In this document: positions 17,690 to 45,255 of the stretch, piece by piece
How positions within the stretch are numbered: position 1 is the stretch's first letter
Layout: each line of letters opens with the position of its first letter
From: Bacilli bacterium
GTDB lineage: Bacteria; Bacillota_I; Bacilli_A; RFN20; CAG-826
Direction: 5' to 3'
NCBI GenBank assembly: GCA_034116505.1
Contig: JAXERM010000012.1
Coordinates: 1-45,255, forward strand
DNA: 45,255 nucleotides
Made by a program: the position numbers and the translations under genes
Notes under the pieces: model-generated
What the model was told of the DNA's origin: nothing
What the model saw: only the letters and a program-made list of their open reading frames with translations
Databases searched by the model: none

Positions 17690-18139
17690 ATGAAAGTTCA
17701 TCCAAGTTATTTAAGATTGTTGTTATTATTTTCTGCCAGTGTCTTACTATGTGGGATAATATTATTCCTGGTATGTATTTCATTTTTTCTGTCTATTCCT
17801 TGGGGATGGCAAGCATACGCAATTATCGCGATTTGGGTAGTTTTATCATCAATATTCGCGTTTTTCACTTTTTTTCGTAATTATTATGAAGTAAATAAAC
17901 GCTATGTGATTGTGCATCGTGGTTTTAGACAATTAATCTATTATTACAACGATGTAGTTTATATCGATGAAGAAAAATCAACCCGCAAAAAAATGATTCA
18001 TTTCTACACGAATAAAGGTCATACAAGATATATCACTTTTGATAAAAATCAAATTCTTTATAAAACGATGCTCTCGAATTGTAAAAACCGTTTAACAAAA
18101 GAAGAATTTGAAAGAAGATATCCAAAAGTGAAATTATAG
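17690..18139 (+). CDS. Small membrane protein with two N-terminal TM helices and a bacterial PH-like (YdbS/YdbT-type) C-terminal domain
   Basis: There are two hydrophobic helices (LLLLFSASVLLCGIILFLVCISFFL and AIIAIWVVLSSIFAFFTFF). The following segment, YYEVNKRYVIVHRGFRQLIYYYNDVVYID, resembles bPH_2 domains. No SD is obvious. Confidence 0.6.
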   Translation: MKVHPSYLRLLLLFSASVLLCGIILFLVCISFFLSIPWGWQAYAIIAIWVVLSSIFAFFTFFRNYYEVNKRYVIVHRGFRQLIYYYNDVVYIDEEKSTRKKMIHFYTNKGHTRYITFDKNQILYKTMLSNCKNRLTKEEFERRYPKVKL

Positions 18140-18149
18140 AAAAACGATA

Positions 18150-18179
18150 TTGCAAACCCTTATAGGATTATGATATTAT
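18150..18179 (+). promoter_or_regulatory. Sigma-A type promoter of rpmB with an extended -10
   Basis: The -35 is TTGCAA (18150-18155). After an 18-nt spacer comes TGaTATTAT, with TG at 18171-18172 and the -10 TATTAT at 18174-18179. This lies about 30 nt upstream of the rpmB ATG. Confidence 0.55.
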
Positions 18180-18208
18180 TTACCGCGAACGAATAGGAGG
18201 GCTACGAT

Positions 18209-18403
18209 ATGTCAAGAGTATGTCCAGTTACAGGAAAAGGACCATTAAGCGGCAATAACCGTTCACATTCATTAAGAGCAACTCGCCGTAGATGGAACAC
18301 CAATCTTCAACCAAGAACAGTGGTCGTTGATGGTAAAGTAATGCGTGTTCGTATGTCCACACGCGCCTATCGCAGTCTCAATAAACAATATAAAGAGAGA
18401 TAA
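18209..18403 (+). CDS. rpmB: 50S ribosomal protein L28
   Basis: The sequence begins MSRVCPVTGKGPLSGNNRSHSLRATRRRWNTNLQ. An SD AGGAGG is at 18195-18200. It is divergent from the rpe cluster, as in Bacillus. Confidence 0.98.
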   Translation: MSRVCPVTGKGPLSGNNRSHSLRATRRRWNTNLQPRTVVVDGKVMRVRMSTRAYRSLNKQYKER

Positions 18404-18420
18404 AATAGGATTATCCTGAT

Positions 18421-18450
18421 AAAAAAACAGCCGTGTTGGCTGTTTTTTTG
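18421..18450. terminator. Bidirectional rho-independent terminator after rpmB
   Basis: An A7 run precedes the stem AACAGCC (18426-18432), which pairs with GGCTGTT (18438-18444) around the loop GTGTT. A T-run follows. Confidence 0.8.
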
Positions 18451-18460
18451 TTATTTAATT

Positions 18461-19126
18461 TTAAGCTTGAAGCACTAATAATATAATCAATAAAAGCGGA
18501 TGGATAATTGCGCCAAAAATACTGAGCCATTCACTAAATGCATAAGTGATATATTTCGGACGAACATATGTTTCTTGTCCTTTGTCATCTAATTTCACAT
18601 CCATTTTAATATTTAATGTTAATTTCGGATTCATTGTAACTCCGAAATAAAATAAAGCTACAACACTGCTTACGATGAAGAACACTAAATATAAAGGTTC
18701 TAAGAAATCTTGATAATAAGGGAAATAAATAACCGCGGTAATTCCTGGAAGTAAAAAGGCGGTTAAAAATAAGAAAATAGAAAAGGCCATATGGGTCTTT
18801 AATAATTTAAGCGGAACGAAAAACATCGTACCGATCAAAATTGAATTAATGCATCCAACGATCGAAGCAATTAATACAATCGGATTATTTAAATGAACAT
18901 TTAAAATAACATAAAAACCAATTAGAAAACATAAGCTCATGATCAATGCTGCGTTTCCTAAAATATTATCGCTAAAACGACTTTCATAATTTAATTCATA
19001 AGGAAAAGTGTTACGAACGTGATAAGTTAAATTAAATCTTTTTTTATAATTAAATATAGAAGCAAAAACGCTGACAAAAAAGAAGATGACAAAAAAGATA
19101 TAAAAGCCAATCGAAAACATTAGCAT
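18461..19126 (-). CDS. Polytopic membrane protein, function unknown
   Basis: The 221-aa protein has about six hydrophobic helices and no recognisable motif. It occupies the slot downstream of rpe where Bacillus has thiN. Confidence 0.65.
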   Translation of the reverse strand: MLMFSIGFYIFFVIFFFVSVFASIFNYKKRFNLTYHVRNTFPYELNYESRFSDNILGNAALIMSLCFLIGFYVILNVHLNNPIVLIASIVGCINSILIGTMFFVPLKLLKTHMAFSIFLFLTAFLLPGITAVIYFPYYQDFLEPLYLVFFIVSSVVALFYFGVTMNPKLTLNIKMDVKLDDKGQETYVRPKYITYAFSEWLSIFGAIIHPLLLIILLVLQA

Positions 19127-22283: not shown

Positions 22284-23319
22284 GGTTATCTACTTTTGCT
22301 TTTAATTGCCCACATGCGGCGTCGATATCACTACCAAATTCTTTCCTAATCGTAGCCATGACACCACCTTTTAATAAATAATCTAAAAAGGCATGGACGC
22401 GATTATTTGAACTACGTTTATAGTCATTTTTATTAGTTTCGTTATATGGAATTAAATTCACATAACCTTTTGTGCCTTTAATCAATTTAATTAATTCTTC
22501 CGCGTGTTCTTTTGAATCATTAATATTTGCTAATAGCAAATATTCATATGTCACTCTTCGCTTTGTCAACGTTTCATATTCCTTAATCGCAGGAATTAAT
22601 AATTCTAAAGGATAAGCTTTATTTATTTTCATCAATTGATTTCTCAGCTCATTATTTGGAGCGTGTAAAGAAATAGCTAAATTAGTCTGTAATCCTTCTA
22701 AAGCATATTTTTTAATACCGTCAATTAATCCACAAGTGGAAACAGTAATATGTCTCGCCCCAATCGCTAAACCTTTTTGTTCATTGATGATACGAATAAA
22801 ATCAATCACGTTATCATAATTATCGAATGGTTCTCCAGTCCCCATCACCACGACATGTGTGACATGTAAATCTGGGTTTTCTTCTTTTAGAAGATTATTC
22901 ATTACTAATATTTGCCCCACCATTTCTTCCGGTAATAAATTTCTTTGTTTACCTAAGATACCACTAGAGCAAAAACTGCAAGCCATATTACATCCAACTT
23001 GGGAAGAGACACAAATGCTACATCCGTATTCATAACGCATTAAGACGCATTCAACTTTCATTCCATCAGATAATTGTAATAACAATTTAATCGTGCCATC
23101 TTTAGATACTTGTTTGAGATAGATAGAAGGTAATTCTAAACAATATTTTTCTTTTAATACTTCACGGAAACGTAAAGAAATATCACTCATCTCATCAAAA
23201 GATGTTGCCTTCTTTTCATACATCCATGTGTATAACTGCACAGCACGAAAAGATTTTTGGCCTTCTTGCACCATTTGATTTTTGAGTTTTTCCATCGTTA
23301 ATCCGTAAAGATTAATCAT
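22273..23319 (-). CDS. rlmN: 23S rRNA/tRNA adenine-C2 methyltransferase RlmN (radical SAM)
   Basis: It has the CxxxCxxC cluster (VGCNMACSFCSSG), GEPFDNYDNV and a C-terminal DIDAACGQL. Confidence 0.95.
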   Translation of the reverse strand: MINLYGLTMEKLKNQMVQEGQKSFRAVQLYTWMYEKKATSFDEMSDISLRFREVLKEKYCLELPSIYLKQVSKDGTIKLLLQLSDGMKVECVLMRYEYGCSICVSSQVGCNMACSFCSSGILGKQRNLLPEEMVGQILVMNNLLKEENPDLHVTHVVVMGTGEPFDNYDNVIDFIRIINEQKGLAIGARHITVSTCGLIDGIKKYALEGLQTNLAISLHAPNNELRNQLMKINKAYPLELLIPAIKEYETLTKRRVTYEYLLLANINDSKEHAEELIKLIKGTKGYVNLIPYNETNKNDYKRSSNNRVHAFLDYLLKGGVMATIRKEFGSDIDAACGQLKAKVDNHEQ

Positions 23320-24541
23320 GTTCTTTCACCCTCGTTAATATCGCGTAATAACCAGTTAATAAATCGCTTTCAAAATTATAAGATTGATGAGCTTTTGTTA
23401 AAACAAAATCATCATTATCATTTAAGAATTTATTAATCACGTTATTAGTTTCTTTATTAGATAAAGTTGGGACAAAATAAATGAGTTGCCCACCTAATTC
23501 GACAAATTCTTTCGCGTTTTCTAATGTTTCAATTTGATTAATAATGAATTGATCTAAATCATTTTGATTAATTCTTAAGAAATAATCAGGTTCATTATTT
23601 AATCTATTTAATTCCGTATTGATTGGGCAAACAAAGAATGTGTGCACTTTATTTGATAAACAAGTGATAATTGATGTATGTGCACATTCATATAATTGAA
23701 TGCCTGATAACTTAAAAGCTTCTAATTGTTTTTTGATATTGAATAAAACGGTTTTGCCTTCCACTAATAAATCAAAATTTAAAGATTGGCCAGTGCGGGC
23801 AAACATTTCTTTAATGATGTCGTTATTAGAACCAACAAAGAAACCAATTCCGCGATAAGGATCATAATCAATTTCATTCAATAAATTACGATAGAATGGT
23901 TCTAAACGGACAACATTTTTATTTTGATAAGCTTTACTATATTGGATTTTTGTTTCTCCGACATAATGAACGAAATCATCATCTATATAATCAAAGCCTT
24001 CTAAATCATCTTTTCTAATAATGCGATAAGTATTTACTTTATTAACATTATTTGTTCTTAAAAATTTAATTAGATTCACTAACCCGTATTGTTTTCTAAT
24101 CATATTAACAACCCAAGTCGGGACATTATAACGGAGTGAATAATATAAATTAGAACGACGATTTATTTCTTCTGGGATTAATTTATTAACATCGTTTACA
24201 TCATTAACAAACTCCTCCATATCATCAAGATGAATTCTTTGTAAAACAATACTAACTAATTCACTATCAGGATATTTTTTCACAAATAATCGATTTGCGA
24301 ACGTGATGAATAATAAATATAAATGTTCGTGAGGTATTTCGTTATATTTCTTATTAATTAAATAAGAAAAGATATAATAATGCCTTAAAGAACATCCAAC
24401 GAGAGAAATGATATCGTTTTTATCAGTCGCAGTTAATTTAGTTTCTTTCTTGATAAAGTTATTAACCGCCACTTTAAAAGGAACTTCTTTATCAATGACA
24501 TAAGTAAGGATATCAATCGCTAAATCAAAATACTTTTTCAT
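23312..24541 (-). CDS. RsmB/Sun-like protein with NusB-like N-domain and a degenerate m5C-methyltransferase domain
   Basis: It occupies the rsmB slot upstream of rlmN. YSLRYNVPTWVVNMIRKQYG matches the RsmB linker. The C-terminal half aligns by eye with RsmB motifs IV-VI (FFVCPINTE...LGGQLIYFVPTLS). However, motif I (AAPGGKT) and both catalytic Cys residues appear to be replaced. Confidence 0.6.
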   Translation of the reverse strand: MKKYFDLAIDILTYVIDKEVPFKVAVNNFIKKETKLTATDKNDIISLVGCSLRHYYIFSYLINKKYNEIPHEHLYLLFITFANRLFVKKYPDSELVSIVLQRIHLDDMEEFVNDVNDVNKLIPEEINRRSNLYYSLRYNVPTWVVNMIRKQYGLVNLIKFLRTNNVNKVNTYRIIRKDDLEGFDYIDDDFVHYVGETKIQYSKAYQNKNVVRLEPFYRNLLNEIDYDPYRGIGFFVGSNNDIIKEMFARTGQSLNFDLLVEGKTVLFNIKKQLEAFKLSGIQLYECAHTSIITCLSNKVHTFFVCPINTELNRLNNEPDYFLRINQNDLDQFIINQIETLENAKEFVELGGQLIYFVPTLSNKETNNVINKFLNDNDDFVLTKAHQSYNFESDLLTGYYAILTRVKEHD

Positions 24542-24545
24542 ATGA

Positions 24546-25001
24546 TTAATCTTTTTTTAGGATATCTTTAAAGATATCTCCTGTATATATTTCTTCATCT
24601 CCATCGCCTTCTTCTAAATCAGAAGAATTATCTTCATCAAAATTTACGATATTGTCTTCCTTCATGAAACGAGGATAATCTTCATTGAATGAATAATAGC
24701 GGCGTCCTTCCTGATAATAATGGAATTCAACCACGACATGAATCGCGTTATTACCTAAGCAATTAAATAATAAGTCACGCATTTCTTCTTCTTTGTCCAT
24801 TTTTGAAACTGGAGCATGAACAATCATTAAAACGTTCCAAGATGTTTGATCAACACCATTATGAAAATACATAACTGAAGGAGCGATAAAATCAATTTCG
24901 TCTTCGCTAGTTTCATAAATTTTGCTGATTAAAGGAGTGATATCTCTTGAGACATCACCAACGATGAATTGGTCTAAACCGATAAATGTAACTGATACCA
25001 T
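24546..25001 (-). CDS. Hypothetical protein with a DUF1904-like N-terminal domain and a strongly acidic C-terminal tail
   Basis: The 151-aa protein has MVSVTFIGLDQFIVGDVSRDI...DEIDFIAPSV, reminiscent of DUF1904 (tautomerase-like) proteins. Its tail is DEDNSSDLEEGDGDEE. It sits where def-fmt lie in the Bacillus cluster. Confidence 0.5.
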   Translation of the reverse strand: MVSVTFIGLDQFIVGDVSRDITPLISKIYETSEDEIDFIAPSVMYFHNGVDQTSWNVLMIVHAPVSKMDKEEEMRDLLFNCLGNNAIHVVVEFHYYQEGRRYYSFNEDYPRFMKEDNIVNFDEDNSSDLEEGDGDEEIYTGDIFKDILKKD

Positions 25002-27899: not shown

Positions 27900-29273
27900 A
27901 TGATTAGCAAATTGACAAGCAAAAACATCGAAACTATTTCTTTAGATTTGAAACAGAAAATTGTTCATAATCATATCGCAAATATCTCAATTATTAATTC
28001 AACCGATCTATTATGCACTTTTTCTTTATGTCGAAAAGAAAGATTGATCATCTCTTTATCACACCAAAATCCTTTTATTGCTTTAGTGGATATTTTAATT
28101 AATGTGCCAACGACTTTAGGACAATTTAATGACGTGATAAGAAAAGAAGTGAAAGACGGTTTTATTTTAGATGTGAACGCGATTAAAGATGATCGCATAA
28201 TCAATATTGATTATGAGATAACCGACGATTATTTTATTAAACATCGTCGTACTTTAGTATTAGAGTTAATACCTCATCGCCCTAATTTAATGATTTTAGA
28301 TGAGAATCAAAATATTATATACGCTTCGCATTATTCTTCTTTGACCGCTAATCGAATTGTGCTAAAGGGTTTTAAATATCAGCCTCTTCCGATCAATAAT
28401 AAAAAGATAGAAGATGATGATTTTGATTATCTTCAATTTAAACAAGAAGTTAAAGATTATTTTTATCAAGCAAAAACAAAGCGTTTAGAAGAACAATTCA
28501 AACCTTTGATTACGAGCATGAAAATTCGGATCAAATCATTAAAACAGAAATTAAATAAATTAGATAAGGAAAATGAATTAGCTGAGCAAAGATTTATTTA
28601 TAAAGAAATCGCCGACACCTTATTAGCGTACCAATATGATAAAGATTTATTATTAGAATACATCAAAGAAAAAGATATTAAATATGACCAATCAATCTCA
28701 ATTGGTAATAACGCTAATTATTATTATAAATGGTATAAAAAAGCAAAAAGAACATTGCAAATGAATGAAATAGAAAGACAAAAGAGTCTTTTTGAAATCG
28801 CTAAATATGAGGATTTGTTAAATAAAATTCCTTATATGAATGAAGATGACTTACTAGAATTAAGCGAAGAACTAATGGTGAAGAAACTTTTATCTAATAA
28901 GAAAAAGAAAAAGGTCAACAATATCAGTTTTATACAAATAGATAACACTAAAATCTATTATGGCAAAAACGCAAAACAAAATAATGAAATCACTTTCTCT
29001 ATCGCTCATAAAGATGATTATTATTTCCATATCAAAGATTATCATGGATCACATGTTGTTATTAAAAATAACAATCCTAATGATGAACTAAAATTAATCG
29101 CAGCAGAAATCGCCCTATTATTAAGCGGAAAGGAAAGCGGAGAAGTATTGTTTACGCAAAATAAATATGTGAAAAAAGGCTCCAGTTTAGGTGAAGCCAT
29201 TTTACAAAAATATCAATCTATTTATATTAATAAGATAAGAGAAGAAACAAAGAAAAAACTAATCGCTAATTAG
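27900..29273 (+). CDS. rqcH: RqcH / FbpA-family (NFACT) ribosome quality-control protein, short form
   Basis: The N-terminal NFACT-N domain retains the DR motif (AIKDDRIINIDYE). A central coiled coil is present. The C-terminal NFACT-R/DUF814 domain has YYFHIKDYHGSHVVIK. I prefer the ATG at 27900 over the TTG at 27840. The product is 457 aa, against about 570 aa in B. subtilis. Confidence 0.85.
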   Translation: MISKLTSKNIETISLDLKQKIVHNHIANISIINSTDLLCTFSLCRKERLIISLSHQNPFIALVDILINVPTTLGQFNDVIRKEVKDGFILDVNAIKDDRIINIDYEITDDYFIKHRRTLVLELIPHRPNLMILDENQNIIYASHYSSLTANRIVLKGFKYQPLPINNKKIEDDDFDYLQFKQEVKDYFYQAKTKRLEEQFKPLITSMKIRIKSLKQKLNKLDKENELAEQRFIYKEIADTLLAYQYDKDLLLEYIKEKDIKYDQSISIGNNANYYYKWYKKAKRTLQMNEIERQKSLFEIAKYEDLLNKIPYMNEDDLLELSEELMVKKLLSNKKKKKVNNISFIQIDNTKIYYGKNAKQNNEITFSIAHKDDYYFHIKDYHGSHVVIKNNNPNDELKLIAAEIALLLSGKESGEVLFTQNKYVKKGSSLGEAILQKYQSIYINKIREETKKKLIAN

Positions 29274-29730
29274 GATTAGATACTTCGACATAGCGGTCTA
29301 AATATTTAATTGTGTTGCTGTCATTAGCTTTAAAAGCGACACTTCCTTGCATAAAGAAATAAGTGGTTGGAACAATATCCTGGTCTTGCCAAACATAATA
29401 TCCTTCTGTCGCATCCAAAACATAATGTTTATTACTTTCAGTAATTGAAGAAATCGGTAAATAATATATTTTTGCGTGATAATATTTAGCCCACGCTTCC
29501 ATTGAATTTTTCAAAGATAGACATGCTTCACACCCACTATCGCCGAATAAATAAATTGAATCAATGCGATCGATAAAAGCATGATTATATAAAAATTCAG
29601 GATCAATCGTGACAAAACCACCATTTTCCGCATATTCAATCTTCATCTTTTCCCCGGTATAAGAAGAATTTTGATTATTGCATCCAATTAATAATGGGAT
29701 AAAAAATAATAAATATATTTTTCTTTTCAT
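29266..29730 (-). CDS. Thioredoxin-fold lipoprotein (CxxC = CEAC)
   Basis: A lipobox signal peptide, MKRKIYLLFFIPLLIGC, is followed by IYLFGDSGCEACLSLKNSMEAW in a Trx-like beta-alpha context. Confidence 0.7.
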   Translation of the reverse strand: MKRKIYLLFFIPLLIGCNNQNSSYTGEKMKIEYAENGGFVTIDPEFLYNHAFIDRIDSIYLFGDSGCEACLSLKNSMEAWAKYYHAKIYYLPISSITESNKHYVLDATEGYYVWQDQDIVPTTYFFMQGSVAFKANDSNTIKYLDRYVEVSNPN

Positions 29731-31056: not shown

Positions 31057-31845
31057 ATGAAAAAAATTGCCAAAATCTCATTCTTATTAGCGTTATTACC
31101 TTCGTTAAGTGCGTGTCAAGATGTCAAACATTCAATATACGCGATTAATGTTCAAGGTGATTTTATGGTGAACTTAACAGTCACACAATTGCTCAATTTA
31201 TTAGAAAATCAAGCAACTTTTATGTTAGAAGTTTATTCTCCTCAATGCGGTCATTGTGAAGACATGGAAGTTTTACTAAATAATTATGTTAAGAAAAAAC
31301 ATAAATTACTCTATCGTTTTAATTTAACGCAGATTCCAACTATTGAAGAATTTAATGAAAAATTATCTATTCCGTATAATGATATTTTTCCTAATTCATT
31401 TGTGCCTTCCTTACAATTTATTAAAGAGAGTAAATTAACCTATTCTGTATCTCCAAATAAATTTGATTCATATACGGGAGTGTCTAATGAATTATCAAAA
31501 CATTTCATCAACACAAAGATGACAATGGTGCAAGATTATCAACAATATGAACATTATAAAAACGAATATAACAATTATGTTATTGCTTCTTATTCGTTAG
31601 ATGATCCTCGTAGTGTTAATCTCATTCATCGTACTTTATTAAACAATTCTTCTTTAAACAAAAAAATGAATATTTTAATTGTTAATCAGTCGTTATTTTC
31701 TGATGAAGATTTCAGTTCTATTAAGCAAGAAATGAATGTTCAATATGACACTTTTACGGCAATTTATCAAAATAACACATATAAAAACGCCTCCAATTAT
31801 CTTTTAGATGAAGGCGCTTCTATTTTAAATAATATTAATAATTAA
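31057..31845 (+). CDS. Lipoprotein with an N-terminal thioredoxin/PDI-like domain (CGHC) and a C-terminal domain of unknown function
   Basis: The lipobox is MKKIAKISFLLALLPSLSAC. The motif FMLEVYSPQCGHCEDME matches the classical Trx/PDI xxCGHC context. The protein is 262 aa. Confidence 0.7.
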   Translation: MKKIAKISFLLALLPSLSACQDVKHSIYAINVQGDFMVNLTVTQLLNLLENQATFMLEVYSPQCGHCEDMEVLLNNYVKKKHKLLYRFNLTQIPTIEEFNEKLSIPYNDIFPNSFVPSLQFIKESKLTYSVSPNKFDSYTGVSNELSKHFINTKMTMVQDYQQYEHYKNEYNNYVIASYSLDDPRSVNLIHRTLLNNSSLNKKMNILIVNQSLFSDEDFSSIKQEMNVQYDTFTAIYQNNTYKNASNYLLDEGASILNNINN

Positions 31846-37364: not shown

Positions 37365-38108
37365 TTAGTCTTCAACAAAATCTTCTGGTGCTTCTTGACC
37401 AACATAAATCATCGTCAAAGAAATAAAGACGGTTGTTTGGATAAAAGCACCCCATAAATCAAAATATAAATGTAAAATCCATGTCACTAATGGAGCGAGG
37501 AACACTTGATTCCATTGACCAATAATCGGTTCTAAAGAAGCAAAAACCATACCGGATAATTCTTCTAGACCTAAATAGAGGATGGACATAATAACAGTAC
37601 CCGCGATTGCATTACCAAATAGACGTAACGCCATACTTAATAATGGGGCCCACATGGATATTAAATTGATTGGTAAAAATAAAGGTAATGGATCGATATA
37701 ACGTTTAAAATATTTCCATTTTGTGAAGCGAATACTCGTCGCGTGAATCATCACAAAGGAAGATAAACCTAAAGATAAAGGAACAGCCAAATAAGCAATT
37801 GGACTAGGTAAACCAGTTAAGCCAAAGATAAAAGAGATGAAAAGATATAAGGCGATGCCCATGATATATCCACCGAAATCTTTGAATTGTTTGCCCATTA
37901 ATCCACTAGCCATGTTATCGAAGAATTCGACACCAAATTCCGCTAAGAAAAGGATACCTTTAGGCTTTTTTAATGGATCTTGAAAATGAGCGCGAATCCC
38001 AACATATATCGCTAAAATGCACAATATTAAAACCACAATTAGCGAAGATATTACTTCGGGCGCTAAATCGAATTCTAGAAATTGTTGTACAATATCAATA
38101 AATAACAT
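37365..38108 (-). CDS. atpB: Fo ATP synthase a subunit
   Basis: This polytopic membrane protein has the conserved Arg region LSMALRLFGNAIAG. I prefer the ATG at 38108, which has GAAGGT upstream, over the TTG at 38132. Confidence 0.93.
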   Translation of the reverse strand: MLFIDIVQQFLEFDLAPEVISSLIVVLILCILAIYVGIRAHFQDPLKKPKGILFLAEFGVEFFDNMASGLMGKQFKDFGGYIMGIALYLFISFIFGLTGLPSPIAYLAVPLSLGLSSFVMIHATSIRFTKWKYFKRYIDPLPLFLPINLISMWAPLLSMALRLFGNAIAGTVIMSILYLGLEELSGMVFASLEPIIGQWNQVFLAPLVTWILHLYFDLWGAFIQTTVFISLTMIYVGQEAPEDFVED

Positions 38109-38505
38109 TTTTACCTTCAATAAATGAGACAATAATAGTGATAAATAAACCGATCATATATCCACCCGCTAAAGCGAATAAATTAAATATATGAATGCGG
38201 TAATGATAATATAATAATCCGTTTGCCACTAATGTAAATACAATAATTGATAAACGAATTGCGATAATAATAATTTCATTAAAAGCGGACGACTTCTTTA
38301 AAGAAAGACTCCGCCTATTTTGAATTATATTTATTATAAATATAATCAAAGTGTAAATTCCTAATCCTAATAAAACACCTAATGGATATTCAAATAATTG
38401 CAAGAAATATAAAGGACTTGTTAATAAACCAATCGCTAATAAAGTGATAGAGCAAATTAGGCTAATTTTTCCATATGTGTTAAGACTAGAAAACCACTTT
38501 TTCAT
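38095..38505 (-). CDS. atpI: AtpI-like small membrane protein preceding the atp structural genes
   Basis: The 136-aa protein has four hydrophobic helices and lies immediately upstream of atpB. It has no catalytic motifs, so the assignment is by position and topology. Confidence 0.65.
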   Translation of the reverse strand: MKKWFSSLNTYGKISLICSITLLAIGLLTSPLYFLQLFEYPLGVLLGLGIYTLIIFIINIIQNRRSLSLKKSSAFNEIIIIAIRLSIIVFTLVANGLLYYHYRIHIFNLFALAGGYMIGLFITIIVSFIEGKNVIY

Positions 38506-39874: not shown

Positions 39875-41512
39875 ATGTCATTTAAAGTGGTTTTTGGAAG
39901 CGAAACAAAAATATATGAAAAACCAGTATCCGTTTTAGAAGTTGTTGGTGATAATAAAGAATTTGTTTGTGCTTATGTAAATCGTCGTGTTCGTGAATTA
40001 ACATTCATGATTGATAAAGATAGTGAAGTTATTCCATTAACTGTTAAAGATCGTGACGCAAAACCTTGTTATGAAGCATCTTTGCGTTTTTTAGTGGCGA
40101 TGGCCATGCGCAACATTCGTCCAGAATTAGAAATTCGTTTCTCTTATAACGTTTCTCGTTCTATTTTTATGCAAATTCTCACTCCAGGTGTCAGTGCCAC
40201 TAACGCTTTAGTGAAAGAATTAGAAAAAGAAATGCTCAGAATTATCCAAGCAGATTATCCATTAATTAGATCAATCGTCAGCAAAGATGAAGCGAGCAGA
40301 ATCTTCGATAAGGAAGGTTTCCAAGATAAAGTTAATATCTTACAATACCGTCCAGAAAAAACCGCACACGTATATACATGCGATAACTATAAAAACTACA
40401 TGTATAATCGTATGGTTCCAAGCACTGGATATATTAACAAATTCAAAATTCGTTTCTATCACCCTGGTGTAATCATTCAATATCCTCGTCCAGAAGTTAA
40501 TGGTGAAATCCCACAATTTGAAGACGCTCCAACATTTGGTAAAACATTAAAGAGAGCCCATCAATGGAGTAAAGCGACTGGATGCGACACTGTTGTCGGT
40601 ATCAACCGTCGTATTGAACAAGATGGACCGATTGATTTCATCACTCTTTGTGAACAAAAACACAATCGTCAATTATGTGAATTAGGTCAAATGATTGAAG
40701 ACGATAAAGAAAACATTCGTTTAATTTGTATTGCTGGTCCTTCAAGTTCTGGTAAGACAACATTCGCTAATCGTTTAAGAATTGAATTATTATCTCGTGG
40801 TCTTAATCCAATTAGAATTTCATTAGACGACTATTATTTACCAAAATCACAAGCACCAAAAGATGAAAACGGTGACCCAGATTTAGAAGCAATTGAAGCT
40901 TTAGATATCGAATTATTCAACCAAAACATGTCTGACTTAATCGCAGGCGAAAGAGTGGAATTACCAAAATTCGATTTCAAAGTGGGACATAGAGTCAAAG
41001 GCCGCACATTACGTATTCCTTCTGATCAACCAATTATTATCGAAGGTATCCACGCCTTAAACGAAAGAATGACCGCTTCTATTCCAAGCCATCAAAAATT
41101 CAAAATCTTCATCGCTCCACAAGCACAAGTTAATATCGATAATCACAACCCATTATCATTAACTGACTTACGTTTATTAAGAAGAATTATTCGTGACTAC
41201 CGTACACGTAATGCTTCCGCAACTGACACAATGAGTATGTGGGCGAGCGTTAGAAAAGGTGAATTTAAATCAATTTACGGCACACAAGAAGGAGCAAATT
41301 ATGTCTATAATTCCTTCTCATCATTCGAATTATCCGCGATGAAAAAATATGCGATGCCATTATTAGAAAAAATCGATGTTGAAAGCGAATATTTCCCAGT
41401 CGCTGAAAGATTAATTCGTATGTTAAAATTCTTCGATGATTTACCAGATGAATGGGTCCCATGCAATTCCATCATTAGAGAATTCATCGGTGGTTCTTGT
41501 TACGAAGATTAA
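39875..41512 (+). CDS. Multidomain protein with a ThrRS-N-like TGS domain, a degenerate SAD and a C-terminal uridine/cytidine-kinase (PRK family) P-loop domain
   Basis: I prefer the ATG at 39875 (MSFKVVFG), 8 nt after the SD. The segment HVYTCDNYKNYMYNRMVPSTGYINKFKI aligns with the ThrRS second additional domain (FxDLCRGPHVPxTGxIKAFKL), but the Cys/His pair is lost. Walker A is GPSSSGKTT, followed by SLDDYY and IIEGIH as in Udk. Confidence 0.8.
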   Translation: MSFKVVFGSETKIYEKPVSVLEVVGDNKEFVCAYVNRRVRELTFMIDKDSEVIPLTVKDRDAKPCYEASLRFLVAMAMRNIRPELEIRFSYNVSRSIFMQILTPGVSATNALVKELEKEMLRIIQADYPLIRSIVSKDEASRIFDKEGFQDKVNILQYRPEKTAHVYTCDNYKNYMYNRMVPSTGYINKFKIRFYHPGVIIQYPRPEVNGEIPQFEDAPTFGKTLKRAHQWSKATGCDTVVGINRRIEQDGPIDFITLCEQKHNRQLCELGQMIEDDKENIRLICIAGPSSSGKTTFANRLRIELLSRGLNPIRISLDDYYLPKSQAPKDENGDPDLEAIEALDIELFNQNMSDLIAGERVELPKFDFKVGHRVKGRTLRIPSDQPIIIEGIHALNERMTASIPSHQKFKIFIAPQAQVNIDNHNPLSLTDLRLLRRIIRDYRTRNASATDTMSMWASVRKGEFKSIYGTQEGANYVYNSFSSFELSAMKKYAMPLLEKIDVESEYFPVAERLIRMLKFFDDLPDEWVPCNSIIREFIGGSCYED

Positions 41513-41524
41513 TTAAAAAGTATT

Positions 41525-41571
41525 AAGACCTAAATGTGTTCAAGCGTTTGAACTCAGATAGGTCTTTTTTA
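41525..41571 (+). terminator. Rho-independent terminator marking the end of the housekeeping block
   Basis: The outer stem pairs AAGACCTA (41525-41532) with TAGGTCTT (41559-41566). The inner stem pairs GTTCAA (41538-41543) with TTGAAC (41548-41553). A T6 run follows. Confidence 0.75.
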
Positions 41572-43139
41572 TATATATTAAATAGGATAGAGACATTATT
41601 GTGCCATCAAGCGGTCTTAATATTAAAGATGACGGAGTTTTTTGATAAATCTAAGAATAGTTATGATTTTTTTCTCTTCTTCAGTCCCTTTAAATAAATT
41701 TAAAAGTTTTGTTTATATCAAATAAAAAAATATAAAAATTAAGACAGTGTCAAAAAAATCAACGCAATAATTTAGATTTGAATATCAACCCTCATAAAAT
41801 TTAATTGTAAAGCTTATCAGGGGGAAAATTATGATTAAATACGTTTCAAATCTCGCTTCCAATTCTTCATCACCAAAAATTGATATTTCTTGTAAATTAA
41901 TTAAGATATCAAACACTAGTTATTCTTCTAATACCACTGCACTTAATGCTGGCAATGTCTTGTTTTATCATATTAAATTTAATGGGCTAACATCTAACGA
42001 CAAAATATATCAGACATACTTAACCTTAGTGTTATTATGCCCAACATATAGTTTTTCAATGAAGTTATATTATGTGGATTCTTTAACTACGTTTCCATCA
42101 ATCTAAACCATATCCAAAGTAATGATACACTCATTAACGAAAGTCCATTTAACATCGATGAATTGTTGTTCTTTAAGCAAACATTAGAAGATTTCCAAAG
42201 CGAAACATCATCAGGATGATTAGAAATATCCAGTTATGCTGCTTCAATCGAAATCGCTTTATATTTATTTGGTATTTCCTCTCATGAATATACTAGTGAT
42301 GAATTATTCGAAATGGACCAAGCGTGGCAAAAATATTTCCTTGGCCAAGCATATAACAATTTAAATAATTGCAGCAAAACATTAATCAATCACAACATCG
42401 ATGAAGGAGAGGATTTTATTTCCTTAAATGGAGATGCGACTTCCTATCGCGGAAGAATCCCGTTAAATCCTTCAATGAATTATCAACATTTTGATATTCA
42501 AAAAGATGCATATTTTAAATACGATAGTCTAATCAATCGACACATATATTACATCGATGAATCTTCATCGTTTTATCCGTTACATTACAATTTACCTTTA
42601 ACTAGTTCAGGCACACTCAGTTTATTCTTTAAACTAAATTATACGTGCACTCATTTGAGATACCTGTTTAGTTTTATGATGAGAATGATAATTTATATTT
42701 TGCAGTTTATATCAATCAAAATAATCAATGCTATTATCATAAAGATAATCAGGACATCCTTATAAAGGAGAATATCTCTTTATCAACTTGGAAAAATATA
42801 TATTTAACATATTCGTTAGGATCAGGACAAATCATCATTGATAGACAAACTGTTAACATCACAAATTTAGATTTAAGTAATCTATCATTCTATTTAGGAA
42901 GTAATATCGATAAAACATTATCTTTAAAAGGAGAAATTGAAAGTCTCTTCTTTGCTGAAGATTATAAAGAATATGATCTAGATAGAATCAATAAATATAG
43001 GCCAGTAACAATCGCTTCTTCCTTAGATAATTTCAAAAGAACTACACAAAAAATTATCAATGTTAATGATCGAAGATTTATCACTACATACACATATGAT
43101 TTATCACGTGTTGCTTCTGAAAACATATTAGGTGATGAT

Positions 43140-44645
43140 TTGATTAATTATACATACACTGAATCAAATCAACTCTTTAGTAGGACTATTGATAATGTTG
43201 CTGATCAATTTAGCTATGATGTTTTCGGAAGACTAGCTTCTTATAACCATTTAAATGGCCAACATCTTGAAACATATTCGTATGATAACAACGGCAATAT
43301 TTTATCAATTAATATTGCTGGAGATGAAATATCAACTTATTCATTCACATATGATAATCAGCGTCTAGTTAGTGTCACTAAAAATGGGTCGATAATTAAC
43401 ACGATTGCTTATAATGATGATAATGTTCTTTTTCCTTCATCAATGACGATTAAAGGAGAAAATAAATCATTAATATGGCAAGGACACCGATTAGTGTGCA
43501 TTGGTGATAATATTCTATATCGATATAACTCTGATGGTGTTAGAACTTATAAACACACTGATTTAGAAGAAACAACTTATGGTTTAGAACAAGAGAAGAT
43601 TATTTCATTAACAAAAACTGTTAACAATGTCTCTTATTCCTTTGCTTTTACATATGATATGAACAATTTGTTATCTTCAATCATTTATAAAGATAAATAT
43701 TATTTTTACATTAGAGATATTTTTGGAAATATTCTTGGTATAATAAATGATAACAAGCAATTTATTGTTAAATATACTTATCGTCCTTATGGTCAATTTA
43801 TAAGAACAATAGTAACAACAGATAATGATGAATTGGTTGTTGCTAACCATAATCCATTCTTATATAAAGGATATTATTATGACGAAGAGACTAATTGGTA
43901 TTACGTCACTTCTCGATATTATAATCCTGAAATTATTAGGTGGATATCTCCTGACAGTATTGATTATCTAGATCCCGAAAGCATCAATGGATTGAACTTA
44001 TATGCGTACTGCGAGAATGATCCTATAAATTACGCCGACCCTAGCGGGTGCTTCCCAATTTTGACTGTAATTTTGTGTGGGCTAGCAGTTGCTGGTTTGG
44101 CAACTATGGGTGTTGGAATGGCAACGGATAACAATTTAGTTACAGCTATTGGCTTAACTATGGTATCAATACCAGCATTGGTTTCTGGTAGTTTGGCAGT
44201 TTTTGCAACAACAGGAACTTTGGCCACATGGATTGGTGCAGGAACTATGGTTGCGGGTCTAGGAACGGGGTTGTTTGCGTCTGCAGAATATCAAGAAGCA
44301 TTTACTGGAAATAACTGGATGTCAAGCAGCTTGAGTGAAGACTGGTATAATGGATTAATGATAGTTACAGCAAGTTTGGCAACTTTAGGAACATTTGCAT
44401 CAAGTTTTGCGTATTCATTTAATATTAATTCGATACAAAACATAGGCAAGATTGATAAGTATTATGGTATCAAATTTACTCAAAAAGCTCCTAGCGGTAA
44501 TTTAAGAGTTAAAACATTAGGAATTCATCCGCCACATAATGGGCACCCTATCCATTGGCAATTAAATAATATAAATCCATCTACGGGTGGAATTGGTAAG
44601 AGAATTAGATGGGATTTACTACTAAGAAGATTAATAGGTAAGTAA
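43140..44645 (+). CDS. RHS repeat-associated core domain protein with C-terminal toxin tip (the longest intact ORF of the rhs gene)
   Basis: YD repeats are present (FSYDVFGRL, YSYDNNGNI, FTYDNQRL, YRYNSDGVR, FTYDMNNLL). The RHS core consensus reads YYFYIRDIFGNILGII...YTYRPYGQ...NPFLYKGYYYDEETNWYYVTSRYYNPEIIRWISPDS...NLYAYCENDPINYADPSG. The frame is open from 42672, but the first ATG/GTG/TTG is the TTG at 43140. Confidence 0.85.
   Translation: MINYTYTESNQLFSRTIDNVADQFSYDVFGRLASYNHLNGQHLETYSYDNNGNILSINIAGDEISTYSFTYDNQRLVSVTKNGSIINTIAYNDDNVLFPSSMTIKGENKSLIWQGHRLVCIGDNILYRYNSDGVRTYKHTDLEETTYGLEQEKIISLTKTVNNVSYSFAFTYDMNNLLSSIIYKDKYYFYIRDIFGNILGIINDNKQFIVKYTYRPYGQFIRTIVTTDNDELVVANHNPFLYKGYYYDEETNWYYVTSRYYNPEIIRWISPDSIDYLDPESINGLNLYAYCENDPINYADPSGCFPILTVILCGLAVAGLATMGVGMATDNNLVTAIGLTMVSIPALVSGSLAVFATTGTLATWIGAGTMVAGLGTGLFASAEYQEAFTGNNWMSSSLSEDWYNGLMIVTASLATLGTFASSFAYSFNINSIQNIGKIDKYYGIKFTQKAPSGNLRVKTLGIHPPHNGHPIHWQLNNINPSTGGIGKRIRWDLLLRRLIGK
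43683..43823 (+). repeat. rhs core segment, copy 1 of a dispersed direct repeat shared with the orphan fragment
   Basis: A codon-by-codon hand alignment with 45115-45255 gives about 104/141 identical nucleotides (roughly 74%) with no gaps. Confidence 0.8.
44049..44642 (+). other. Variable C-terminal (toxin) region of the RHS protein, downstream of the DPxxxxDPSG core boundary
   Basis: The 198 aa include about four Gly/Ala-rich hydrophobic helices (44052-44417) flanking AEYQEAFTGNNW. A 75-aa basic His-rich tail follows (44418-44642, ...LGIHPPHNGHPIHWQLNN...KRIRWDLLLRRLIGK). I recognise no catalytic family. Confidence 0.6.
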
Positions 44646-44661
44646 AAAAATGGAGGATTTT

Positions 44662-45024
44662 ATGGAAACTAGTGTAAAAGAAATGTTGAAATATTATTGT
44701 GAATTAGAAATTGAAAAATTTAATAGTAGTTCCATATTCTCTATGTTAAACGAATTGGTTAAATCTCAAGAGTTAAATCTTAAAATTGAATTTGGAAAAG
44801 CTAAAGACGAAAATGACAAAAATTTATATTTGAGTCTTTCAATTTATAATAAAAATGGTCAATTAGTAGAAATCTTTGATGAAGGATTTCTAACTACATA
44901 TACTACATTAGTTTTAATTGATAAAAAAGATAGATGCAAATTTTTGTCTTGGCAAGATGACGAATTTATTGAAGATTTAAACTGGATTATCAAGCAATTA
45001 AATATATTAGCGAAAAATAAATAG
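44662..45024 (+). CDS. Putative cognate immunity protein (small, soluble, acidic)
   Basis: It starts 16 nt after the rhs stop. GGAGG (44652-44656) lies 5 nt before the ATG at 44662. The ORF-track ATG at 44650 overlaps that SD. The 120-aa product has no TM or signal peptide. The assignment rests on its position immediately 3' of a polymorphic toxin tip. Confidence 0.65.
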   Translation: METSVKEMLKYYCELEIEKFNSSSIFSMLNELVKSQELNLKIEFGKAKDENDKNLYLSLSIYNKNGQLVEIFDEGFLTTYTTLVLIDKKDRCKFLSWQDDEFIEDLNWIIKQLNILAKNK

Positions 45025-45255
45025 CAAATTACTTTTACAAGCAAAACTGGCGAGTTTGCCTTTGGACTATCCAACGCAAAGTAGGTGCAATTGTTTAAAT
45101 TGTAATTTGTCGTTATTTATAAGAACAAGAAATATTTTTATATTAAAGATGCATTAAATAATATCCTTGGTATTATTAATAGTGATAAGCAATATATCGT
45201 TAAAAAGTCTTATCGACCTTTTGGTCAATTTATTAAGAATATATTAACTAAGAAT
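45025..45255 (+). pseudogene. Orphan rhs core fragment with no start codon and 5' in-frame stops, continuing beyond the window
   Basis: Frame 1 reads QITFTSKTGEFAFGLSNAK*VQLFKL*FVVIYKNKKYFYIKDALNNILGIINSDKQYIVKKSYRPFGQFIKNILTKN. This parallels the main gene's ...SYSFAFTYDMNNLLSSIIYKDKYYFYIRDIFGNILGIINDNKQFIVKYTYRPYGQFIRTIVTTDN. The frame is open from 45106 to the window end. Confidence 0.75.
45115..45255 (+). repeat. rhs core segment, copy 2 (orphan)
   Basis: See 43683-43823. The orientation is the same and the copy lies 1.43 kb downstream. Confidence 0.8.

Follow-up and report, generated by a model that had tools for sequence, protein, structure and literature searches.

Does the right end of this contig encode a compact, working polymorphic toxin, or the remains of one? 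The window analysed here is an entire 45,255-bp contig (JAXERM010000012.1) of an NCBI metagenome-assembled genome (MAG) labelled 'Bacilli bacterium', and it stops inside an rhs repeat. A sequence-only reading had proposed, close to that end, a single rhs-type gene with its own N-terminus, an immunity gene behind it and a second, orphan core fragment. We found that 41513-45255 holds the left portion of an rhs ('rearrangement hot spot', RHS) locus that varies between strains of a gut Bacilli MAG, and that its place in the RHS family is that of a pseudogene or remnant and not of a working toxin gene. The explanation that we favour as a whole, with a probability of roughly 75%, is a strain-variable rhs polymorphic-toxin locus in which two rhs genes have been fused and lesioned, while the immunity gene and a spare cassette were kept.

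To see why no toxin gene can be read here, the frames have to be followed from the ATG at 41831. Between this codon and 44645 the sequence spans three reading frames and an in-frame TGA, with no intact 938-codon gene. Frame a covers 41831-42106 (91 amino acids, aa), frame c lies between about 42076 and 42765 and is interrupted by the TGA at 42217-42219, and frame b covers 42672-44645. The genome uses the standard code, in which TGA is a real stop, since none of the 40 long open reading frames (ORFs) that tile the contig has an internal TGA and five of them terminate in one. Code 4 (TGA read as Trp) was considered for the in-frame TGA and ruled out, as these 40 ORFs match family models at full length without it. 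A hidden Markov model (HMM) of the first 520 residues, derived from ten full-length relatives of the LamG type, matched frame c over 42076-42702 (model positions 77-287, E = 4e-17) and frame b over 42672-43334 (model positions 277-513, E = 2e-23), and gave no match in frame a. The two matches are colinear, and a tblastn search with the relative P0022 gave the same colinear frame switch. Because one model is followed colinearly through two frames, the second frame change is a true -1 frameshift, probably from a run of five T that has become four at 42672-42675.

The first frame change is of another kind. A 1-nucleotide (nt) deletion was considered as its cause and rejected, because protein P0228 and the contig that carries it, L090 (run SRR14369136), reveal a recombination junction. 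P0228 is the only database homologue of the reconstructed N-terminus. Its residues 1-89 are 99% identical to the window, after which it continues in frame as a different YD protein, and L090 agrees with window 41431-42099 at 99.4% but departs from it at 42100. We read the 5' end as a fusion of two rhs genes, joined out of frame at 42099/42100, with the LamG-type part lacking about 76 N-terminal family positions. Given the out-of-frame fusion, the TGA and the 1-nt deletion, a full-length toxin cannot be made at this locus, and the proposal of a single rhs gene with its own N-terminus falls with its three frames, its stop codon and its foreign first 89 codons. P0228 weakly resembles the N-terminus of a 2253-aa RHS ORF in L050, a Tenericutes MAG (E = 3e-11). 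In L090 itself, the large rhs gene (400-2157) has an in-frame stop after codon 460, with YD repeats continuing in the same frame; this copy may be inactivated too.

Independent Logan assemblies reproduced the lesions in one run and the left boundary in two. Contig L087 (run SRR21357766) equals window 41483-43874 at 100% without interruption and so contains the left boundary at 41512/13 together with the fusion junction and both internal lesions, TGA and frameshift. L090 has this left end too, at 99.4%. Further to the right, L001 and L002 match the window from 43946 and 44104 up to 45144, at 99.9% and 100%.

A comparison of relatives for variability had been named beforehand as a test that could refute the sequence-only reading. 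In four contigs of other samples, L003-L006, an identity of 98% with the window holds through 41512; beyond it they diverge, with a terminator of their own, a DUF5677 gene in convergent orientation and a gene for an FGGY kinase. Since the locus is absent from these four near-identical strains, it is accessory and strain-variable. The boundary directly follows the TAA stop (41510-41512) of the flanking PRK-family gene (MDY4848808, SO176_00885), whose terminator we place in island-specific DNA because the other strains have another terminator there. The compound hairpin of this terminator folds at -18.4 kcal/mol (z -4.4; 0 of 200 shuffles folded equally well) and was not detected by a simple consensus terminator scan. 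The spacer behind it carries a promoter-like site at 41771-41800 and a strong Shine-Dalgarno (SD) sequence, GGGGG at 41820-41824, 6 nt ahead of the ATG. Terminator, AT-rich spacer and SD were all as first described. A search for repeats or an att-like site at the island boundary found none. No copy of this species' locus was found in the genome-contig scan, and no close relative in the metagenome-contig scan.

What has remained whole is the 3' part, whose longest intact ORF has 501 codons. The Rhs-associated core model TIGR03696 matched it with 77.5 bits (cutoff 32.5, E = 8e-22, model positions 1-75 of 76) over 43779-44048, where the core ends in DPINYADPSG directly ahead of the variable tip. 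Of the HMM searches that had been suggested, this one was strong, and the YD-repeat model TIGR01643 also passed (19.5 bits, cutoff 15.8), while Pfam RHS_repeat (PF05593) stayed below its cutoff of 22 in the window at 18.0-18.7 bits; relatives score 27-55 bits with it. The putative aspartyl-protease motif, whose general form is DPxG-x18/19-DPxG, reads DPES-x18-DPSG, with D434 and D456 (piece-C numbering) 22 residues apart. Across the aligned family D456 never varies and D434 is kept in at least 90% of the sequences, and the core has both predicted aspartyl-protease residues for cleavage at DPSG. An exact look-up of the 501-aa product returned no record.

The tip begins directly after DPSG, has 198 aa (44049-44642), as the earlier reading had it, and was modelled by AlphaFold2 (AF2) with a mean predicted local distance difference test (pLDDT) score of 87 and a predicted template modelling score of 0.78. 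Alignments and this predicted structure suggest that it is modular. Its first part, a hydrophobic helical module, contains no K, R or H and has 12 small-xxx-small motifs. It recurs in P0001-P0031, joined to at least three unrelated types of end domain, which we call by their motifs HWQL (the window), RxHYLKHG and HGPHFH. The end domain is the presumed toxic moiety. In the HWQL type it has 12 K/R against 2 D/E, and H163, H169, Q171 and W188 (tip numbering) are invariant. The domain has no match in Pfam, NCBIfam, PHROGs or PADLOC, its best hit in a profile search of the PDB had an E of 1.5, and Foldseek with the tip model found nothing better than an E of 0.35. From 5.8 billion proteins a profile search recovered only 22 fragments, all short and unannotated. 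An exhaustive phmmer search of 1.84 billion representatives yielded only 75 clusters (50% identity), the longer hits matching at their C-terminal end. The core-end motif was locatable in about two-thirds of P0001-P0120. In these, most tips have 170-225 aa, and most open with a hydrophobic Gly/Ala-rich stretch whatever the end domain behind it (for example Ntox37 or Tox-REase). The uniform length and the hydrophobic start hint at a size limit or a shared entry mechanism.

The small, tightly linked ORF that follows starts 17 nt downstream of the tip ORF and has its own SD, GGAGG at 44652-44656. Its 120-aa product is acidic, has no transmembrane segment and matched no family in Pfam, NCBIfam, PADLOC or PHROGs. 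Homologues lie behind HWQL-type tips in L089 (87% identity, E = 2e-72), L024 (43%, E = 3e-25) and L007 (35%, E = 5e-20), and immunity homologues track the end domain in four of four loci. L088 and L010 have the same helical module with other end domains and with unrelated ORFs downstream. As the immunity homologues follow the end domain and not the helical module, the pattern points to the end domain as the part that is neutralised and to the module as a shared carrier, and from this pairing the 120-aa ORF is the probable cognate immunity gene. In L014, from a Phytoplasma sp. MAG, an ORF at 1087-1626 joins a diverged helical tip module to an immunity-like C-terminus (…KLFDWREDSEFIMDINELISKL…), as though a deletion had merged a toxin gene with an immunity gene.

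Core end, tip and immunity gene form one exchangeable cassette. L089, the locus of P0002, shares only 43914-45024 with the window, at 81% nt identity, and its rhs scaffold is otherwise different; we take this segment as the unit of exchange. Beyond it, 45097-45248 is 72% identical at the nt level to the core segment 43665-43816, the second core fragment of the earlier reading. L001 and L002, which are Logan contigs of different runs, both break at 45144 inside this orphan, and the shared break (a graph branch) suggests that another genomic copy of the core segment, that is, a further rhs gene, exists. A core-tip/immunity array followed by two orphan pairs is present in L009. The layout of toxin, immunity gene and orphan recognised from the sequence was thus borne out. 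A phage tail-fibre-like gene (Gp10_C) lies at 14975-15955 of L089, just downstream of orphan tip/immunity pairs. Table 1 lists the features.

Table 1. Features of the window, with positions on the contig
Feature	Position	Strand	Details
GH18 glycosyl-hydrolase ORF, 599 aa	64-1863	+	PF00704, 170 bits; at contig start
PknB-type Ser/Thr kinase, 310 aa	20645-22283	-	positions 1-274 of 563-position PASTA-kinase model; no PASTA
Left end of strain-variable segment, AT-rich spacer	41513-41830	+	GC 24.8%
Intrinsic terminator of upstream PRK-family gene	41525-41571	+	hairpin 41525-41566, then T-run
Codons 1-89 of another, large rhs gene (P0228 type)	41831-42099	+	window ORF stops at 42106
Decayed 5' part of LamG-type rhs	42100-43139	+	out of frame with start codon; TGA 42217-42219; -1 frameshift within 42672-42702
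Longest intact ORF, 501 codons, TTG start	43140-44645	+	encodes YD repeats, Rhs core, putative toxin tip
Exchangeable cassette (core end, tip, immunity gene)	43914-45024	+	GC rises to 37.8%
Hydrophobic pre-toxin module	44049-44420	+	four predicted helices of 24-30 residues each; pLDDT mostly at least 90 (AF2)
End domain, 73 aa, basic, His-rich	44421-44642	+	predicted five-strand beta unit and terminal helix (AF2)
Probable cognate immunity gene, 120 aa	44662-45024	+	MDY4848811.1 (SO176_00900), exact NCBI match
Orphan rhs core fragment, no start codon	45097-45255	+	cut by contig end; translation VVIYKNKKYFYIKD..GIINSDKQY..

Several points weigh against the explanation by fusion and decay. The order of events and the ancestral arrangement are our inference, and both the activity of the end domain and its passage through a membrane are predictions. 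L087 may come from the MAG's own run, in which case a second assembler confirms the internal lesions and a second population does not. The pairing of immunity gene and end domain rests on seven loci plus the window, and behind a variant of the HWQI type, in L009, the ORF is divergent and not significantly similar. Lastly, an SD-like AGGTGA stands 3 nt before the TTG of the 501-codon ORF, and similar short forms, P0001 (462 aa) and P0002 (451 aa), are called as genes on long contigs, so that a truncated toxin could still be made from it.

This last point is the core of the rival that survives best, in which the ORF is a working 'mini-RHS' started at the TTG that would process itself and whose tip would be released on lysis or would form, with the immunity gene, an addiction module stabilising the island. 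The AGGTGA just upstream, the intact core with both Asp residues and the intact tip fit it, as do the short forms of 370-550 aa, which are frequent among the homologues and may stand first in a locus, as P0002 does in L089. Yet the ORF has no promoter of its own, promoter-like sites being no commoner than in shuffled sequence, its SD-to-start spacing is short and its start a TTG, and its product would go without the jelly-roll domains and most of the YD region. The short form in L089 is without a convincing SD, and comparable fragments in classical rhs loci are silent orphans (Poole et al. 2011, PMC3150448). We consider a working mini-RHS unlikely.

Much less probable is that this RHS family is an intracellular or phage-related system (abortive infection or prophage payload) and no interbacterial weapon at all. 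It would account for the missing export signal, with neither a signal peptide nor partner genes, and a PHROG family does match the core; there are also the phage tail-fibre-like genes near the L089 orphans. However, that PHROG match is the sole one and is merely another RHS core, PADLOC recognised neither the 501-aa ORF nor the immunity ORF, nor P0030 nor a 150-aa ORF, and no phage genes occur among the window ORFs scanned with NCBIfam or Pfam (the family scans covered most of the window's ORFs). The hypervariable tips, the linked and co-varying immunity genes and the orphan arrays are moreover the signature of polymorphic toxins. The idea we started from, a single intact compact LamG-RHS toxin (about 938 aa) that is expressed from the ATG at 41831 and delivered to competitors, draws on the strong SD with this ATG, on a total length that fits the 860-950 aa of relatives and on the intact core, tip and immunity gene; it is highly implausible given the three frames and a TGA that the genome reads as stop, the first 89 codons that belong to another gene (the family HMM begins at position 77, in another frame) and the identical lesions in a second assembly, and it needs the deposited sequence to be wrong at three separate sites. 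Just as implausible is an assembly artefact, a chimera of rhs paralogues or strains with junctions made by the assembler: rhs repeats do break assemblies, the contig ends inside one, and L001 and L002 stop at the same base, but the k-mer-based Logan contig L087 crosses 41512/13 and 42099/100 at 100%, and L090, from another run, confirms 41431-42099.

Under the favoured explanation of a fused and decayed locus, an illegitimate deletion or recombination would have joined a large rhs gene's promoter, SD and first 89 codons to the interior of an rhs gene of the LamG type, which acquired, or may already have had, the TGA nonsense codon and the 1-nt deletion. The survivors would be the 501-codon 3' ORF, the immunity gene with its own strong SD and the promoterless orphan core fragment. 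The locus itself probably exports nothing. In this strain it may give immunity against kin that still deliver the same tip, if the immunity gene is expressed, and it may store tip/immunity cassettes able to recombine with another rhs copy elsewhere in the genome.

How intact relatives might work is a separate matter. Homologues are abundant in MAGs of gut Bacillota, and one, an intact protein of 918 aa (L056), is found in Anaeroplasma bactoclasticum ATCC 27112. The earlier hint of a Mollicutes-like lineage holds in so far as relatives occur in Anaeroplasma, Acholeplasmataceae and Bacilli MAGs; the standard code of this genome does not go with it. Full-length LamG-type relatives have 860-950 aa. 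Pfam PF13385 (Laminin_G_3) was matched in three of five relatives scanned (P0023 with 49 bits, P0030 with 46 and P0022 with 27, the last just below the cutoff), whereas the frame-corrected window protein gave no PF13385 or LamG match in Pfam at an E of up to 1. The LamG-like domains first assigned to the window itself are therefore suggested through homology to these relatives. An AF2 model of P0030 (mean pLDDT 67.7) has two jelly-rolls, about 300 residues of YD hairpins at a pLDDT of 85-93, and the core. In Foldseek it hit a teneurin-like protein, RhsP, Tse15 and TcC at E values of 1e-18 to 1e-13, with TM-scores (template modelling) to solved cocoons of only 0.13-0.30, and laminin LG4-5 and the receptor-binding domain of botulinum toxin (BoNT) at 1e-9.

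The export of these relatives is less easily read from sequence. A Sec-like hydrophobic h-region was absent from the LamG-type and large Mollicutes-type proteins checked; four long Clostridia relatives in the same list do have such a segment. Families of the Sec, type VII secretion (T7SS: LXG, WXG100), type VI secretion (T6SS: PAAR, VgrG) and Tc (TcA, TcB) systems were not found in the toxin or in the contig ORFs scanned with Pfam and NCBIfam, in line with the absence of secretion markers noted from the sequence. Clustering of 2,761 ORFs from the loci of 82 relatives gave no conserved neighbour gene. Transporters of the ABC/FtsX type were considered as an export partner and set aside as chance, being scattered over 12 of the 82 loci at inconsistent distances. 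The unexplained delivery route is thus no property of this broken locus, as had been thought, and is a fair question for its intact relatives, which have neither Sec signals nor conserved neighbours.

By analogy with known systems, the tandem N-terminal jelly-rolls of an intact relative could bind the target surface, and the Rhs core could then cleave after DPSG. The hydrophobic four-helix module would insert in the target membrane and carry the basic end domain inside, where that domain would act, perhaps on nucleic acid, unless bound by the acidic immunity protein. The intact relatives may represent an undescribed delivery design in wall-less or streamlined gut Bacilli (Anaeroplasma, Acholeplasmataceae, RF39-like MAGs): a compact RHS protein of about 930 aa without a signal, a YD region of about 300 aa that looks too short for a closed monomeric cocoon, and self-translocating tips of about 200 aa made of the conserved four-helix module and interchangeable mini-toxins of 65-90 aa, the HWQL type of the window among them. 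This is a speculative reading, and we would not bet on it, without calling it far-fetched.

Among known toxins, WapA is a protein of about 2,300 aa with a Sec signal and wall-binding repeats, while the LamG-type relatives have about 930 aa and no Sec-like h-region. What they share is that WapA, the Sec-dependent RHS toxin of Bacillus subtilis and Streptococcus suis, likewise comes from Bacillota and has a variable tip followed by an immunity gene (PMC12704120). A close likeness in layout is to the Rhs/YD loci with orphan rhs-CT/immunity cassettes (CT, C-terminal) of E. coli, Salmonella and Dickeya (Poole et al. 2011, PMC3150448; Zhang et al. 2012, PMC3482391). Common to both are the YD repeats and the DPxG core end, the hypervariable tip with a tightly linked immunity gene, the strain-variable location and the downstream promoterless core fragments that keep homology for recombination. 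Here, in contrast, the host is a low-GC gut Bacilli MAG, T6SS context is absent and the main gene is a fused, inactivated mosaic, and the intact relatives have N-terminal tandem jelly-rolls in place of PAAR, VgrG-binding or Sec signals.

For the tip, a close parallel is Tse5 of Pseudomonas aeruginosa, which also has a hydrophobic Gly/Ala-rich helical tip right after its aspartyl-protease cleavage site (PMC10684867, PMC9637101). In Tse5 a shell of 1,121 residues surrounds a 16-kDa cargo, delivery uses PAAR and the T6SS, and the pore-forming helical CT is itself the toxin (PMC10684867, PMC9637101). In the locus studied here the helical module is instead followed by an exchangeable domain of 65-90 aa that the downstream ORF tracks, and intact relatives have a YD stretch of only some 300 aa. 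Hydrophobic segments rich in small-xxx-small motifs occur in, or as, other antibacterial toxins: the N-terminal glycine-zipper segment of Tde1 permeabilises the target membrane and lets the enzymatic domain in (PMC10240207), and the LXG toxin EsxX is a further case (PMC12744356). There is no sequence relationship with either, their export systems differ (T6SS for Tde1, T7SS for EsxX), and the module of this tip, a predicted four-helix bundle, lies between Rhs core and end domain. LrhA of Listeria is a Bacillota Rhs toxin whose export has been attributed to T7SSb rather than Sec (PMC10327511), which makes T7SSb one candidate route for the relatives; the essC8 and WXG100-like neighbours and the DUF6531 of LrhA are absent from the window and from conserved positions near relatives.

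For annotation, the result is a correction: what passes for a compact toxin gene is the scar left where two rhs genes recombined, and its antidote gene is intact. It offers an example of 'rearrangement hot spots' decaying to immunity islands even in small genomes, and a caution against reading through frameshifts by eye. The points of interest lie at the level of the family (export route, short YD region, carrier module, end domain) and not in the broken locus. They give three leads, namely a small tip/immunity family without a known fold, a hydrophobic helical module that is apparently a shared carrier for different mini-toxins, and gut Mollicutes-like bacteria that carry many RHS toxins without a recognisable export signal. 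These leads can be tested, but they would extend a well-known system rather than found a new one.

The remainder of the window is mostly housekeeping DNA. ORFs with a family match in NCBIfam or Pfam are housekeeping genes, most of them covering their models nearly end to end, and include ThiI, cysteine desulfurase, EzrA, S4, LeuRS, GlgA/D/C, Rpe and RsgA as well as Stp1, guanylate kinase, F-ATPase subunits, PPi-PFK and PriA. The rhs locus is strain-variable, as said, but the statement that it is the only accessory DNA of the window was too loose. The GH18 gene at the contig start is a second non-housekeeping gene, and ORFs of 136-409 aa in 23312-25001, 29266-29730, 31057-31845, 17690-19126 and 38095-38505 had no Pfam or NCBIfam match at the thresholds used. 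Searches for tRNA and Rfam features found none in the window. The kinase without PASTA domains was correctly recognised from the sequence: the 310-aa PknB-type protein covers just under the first half of its model, and the Stp1 phosphatase gene adjoins it.

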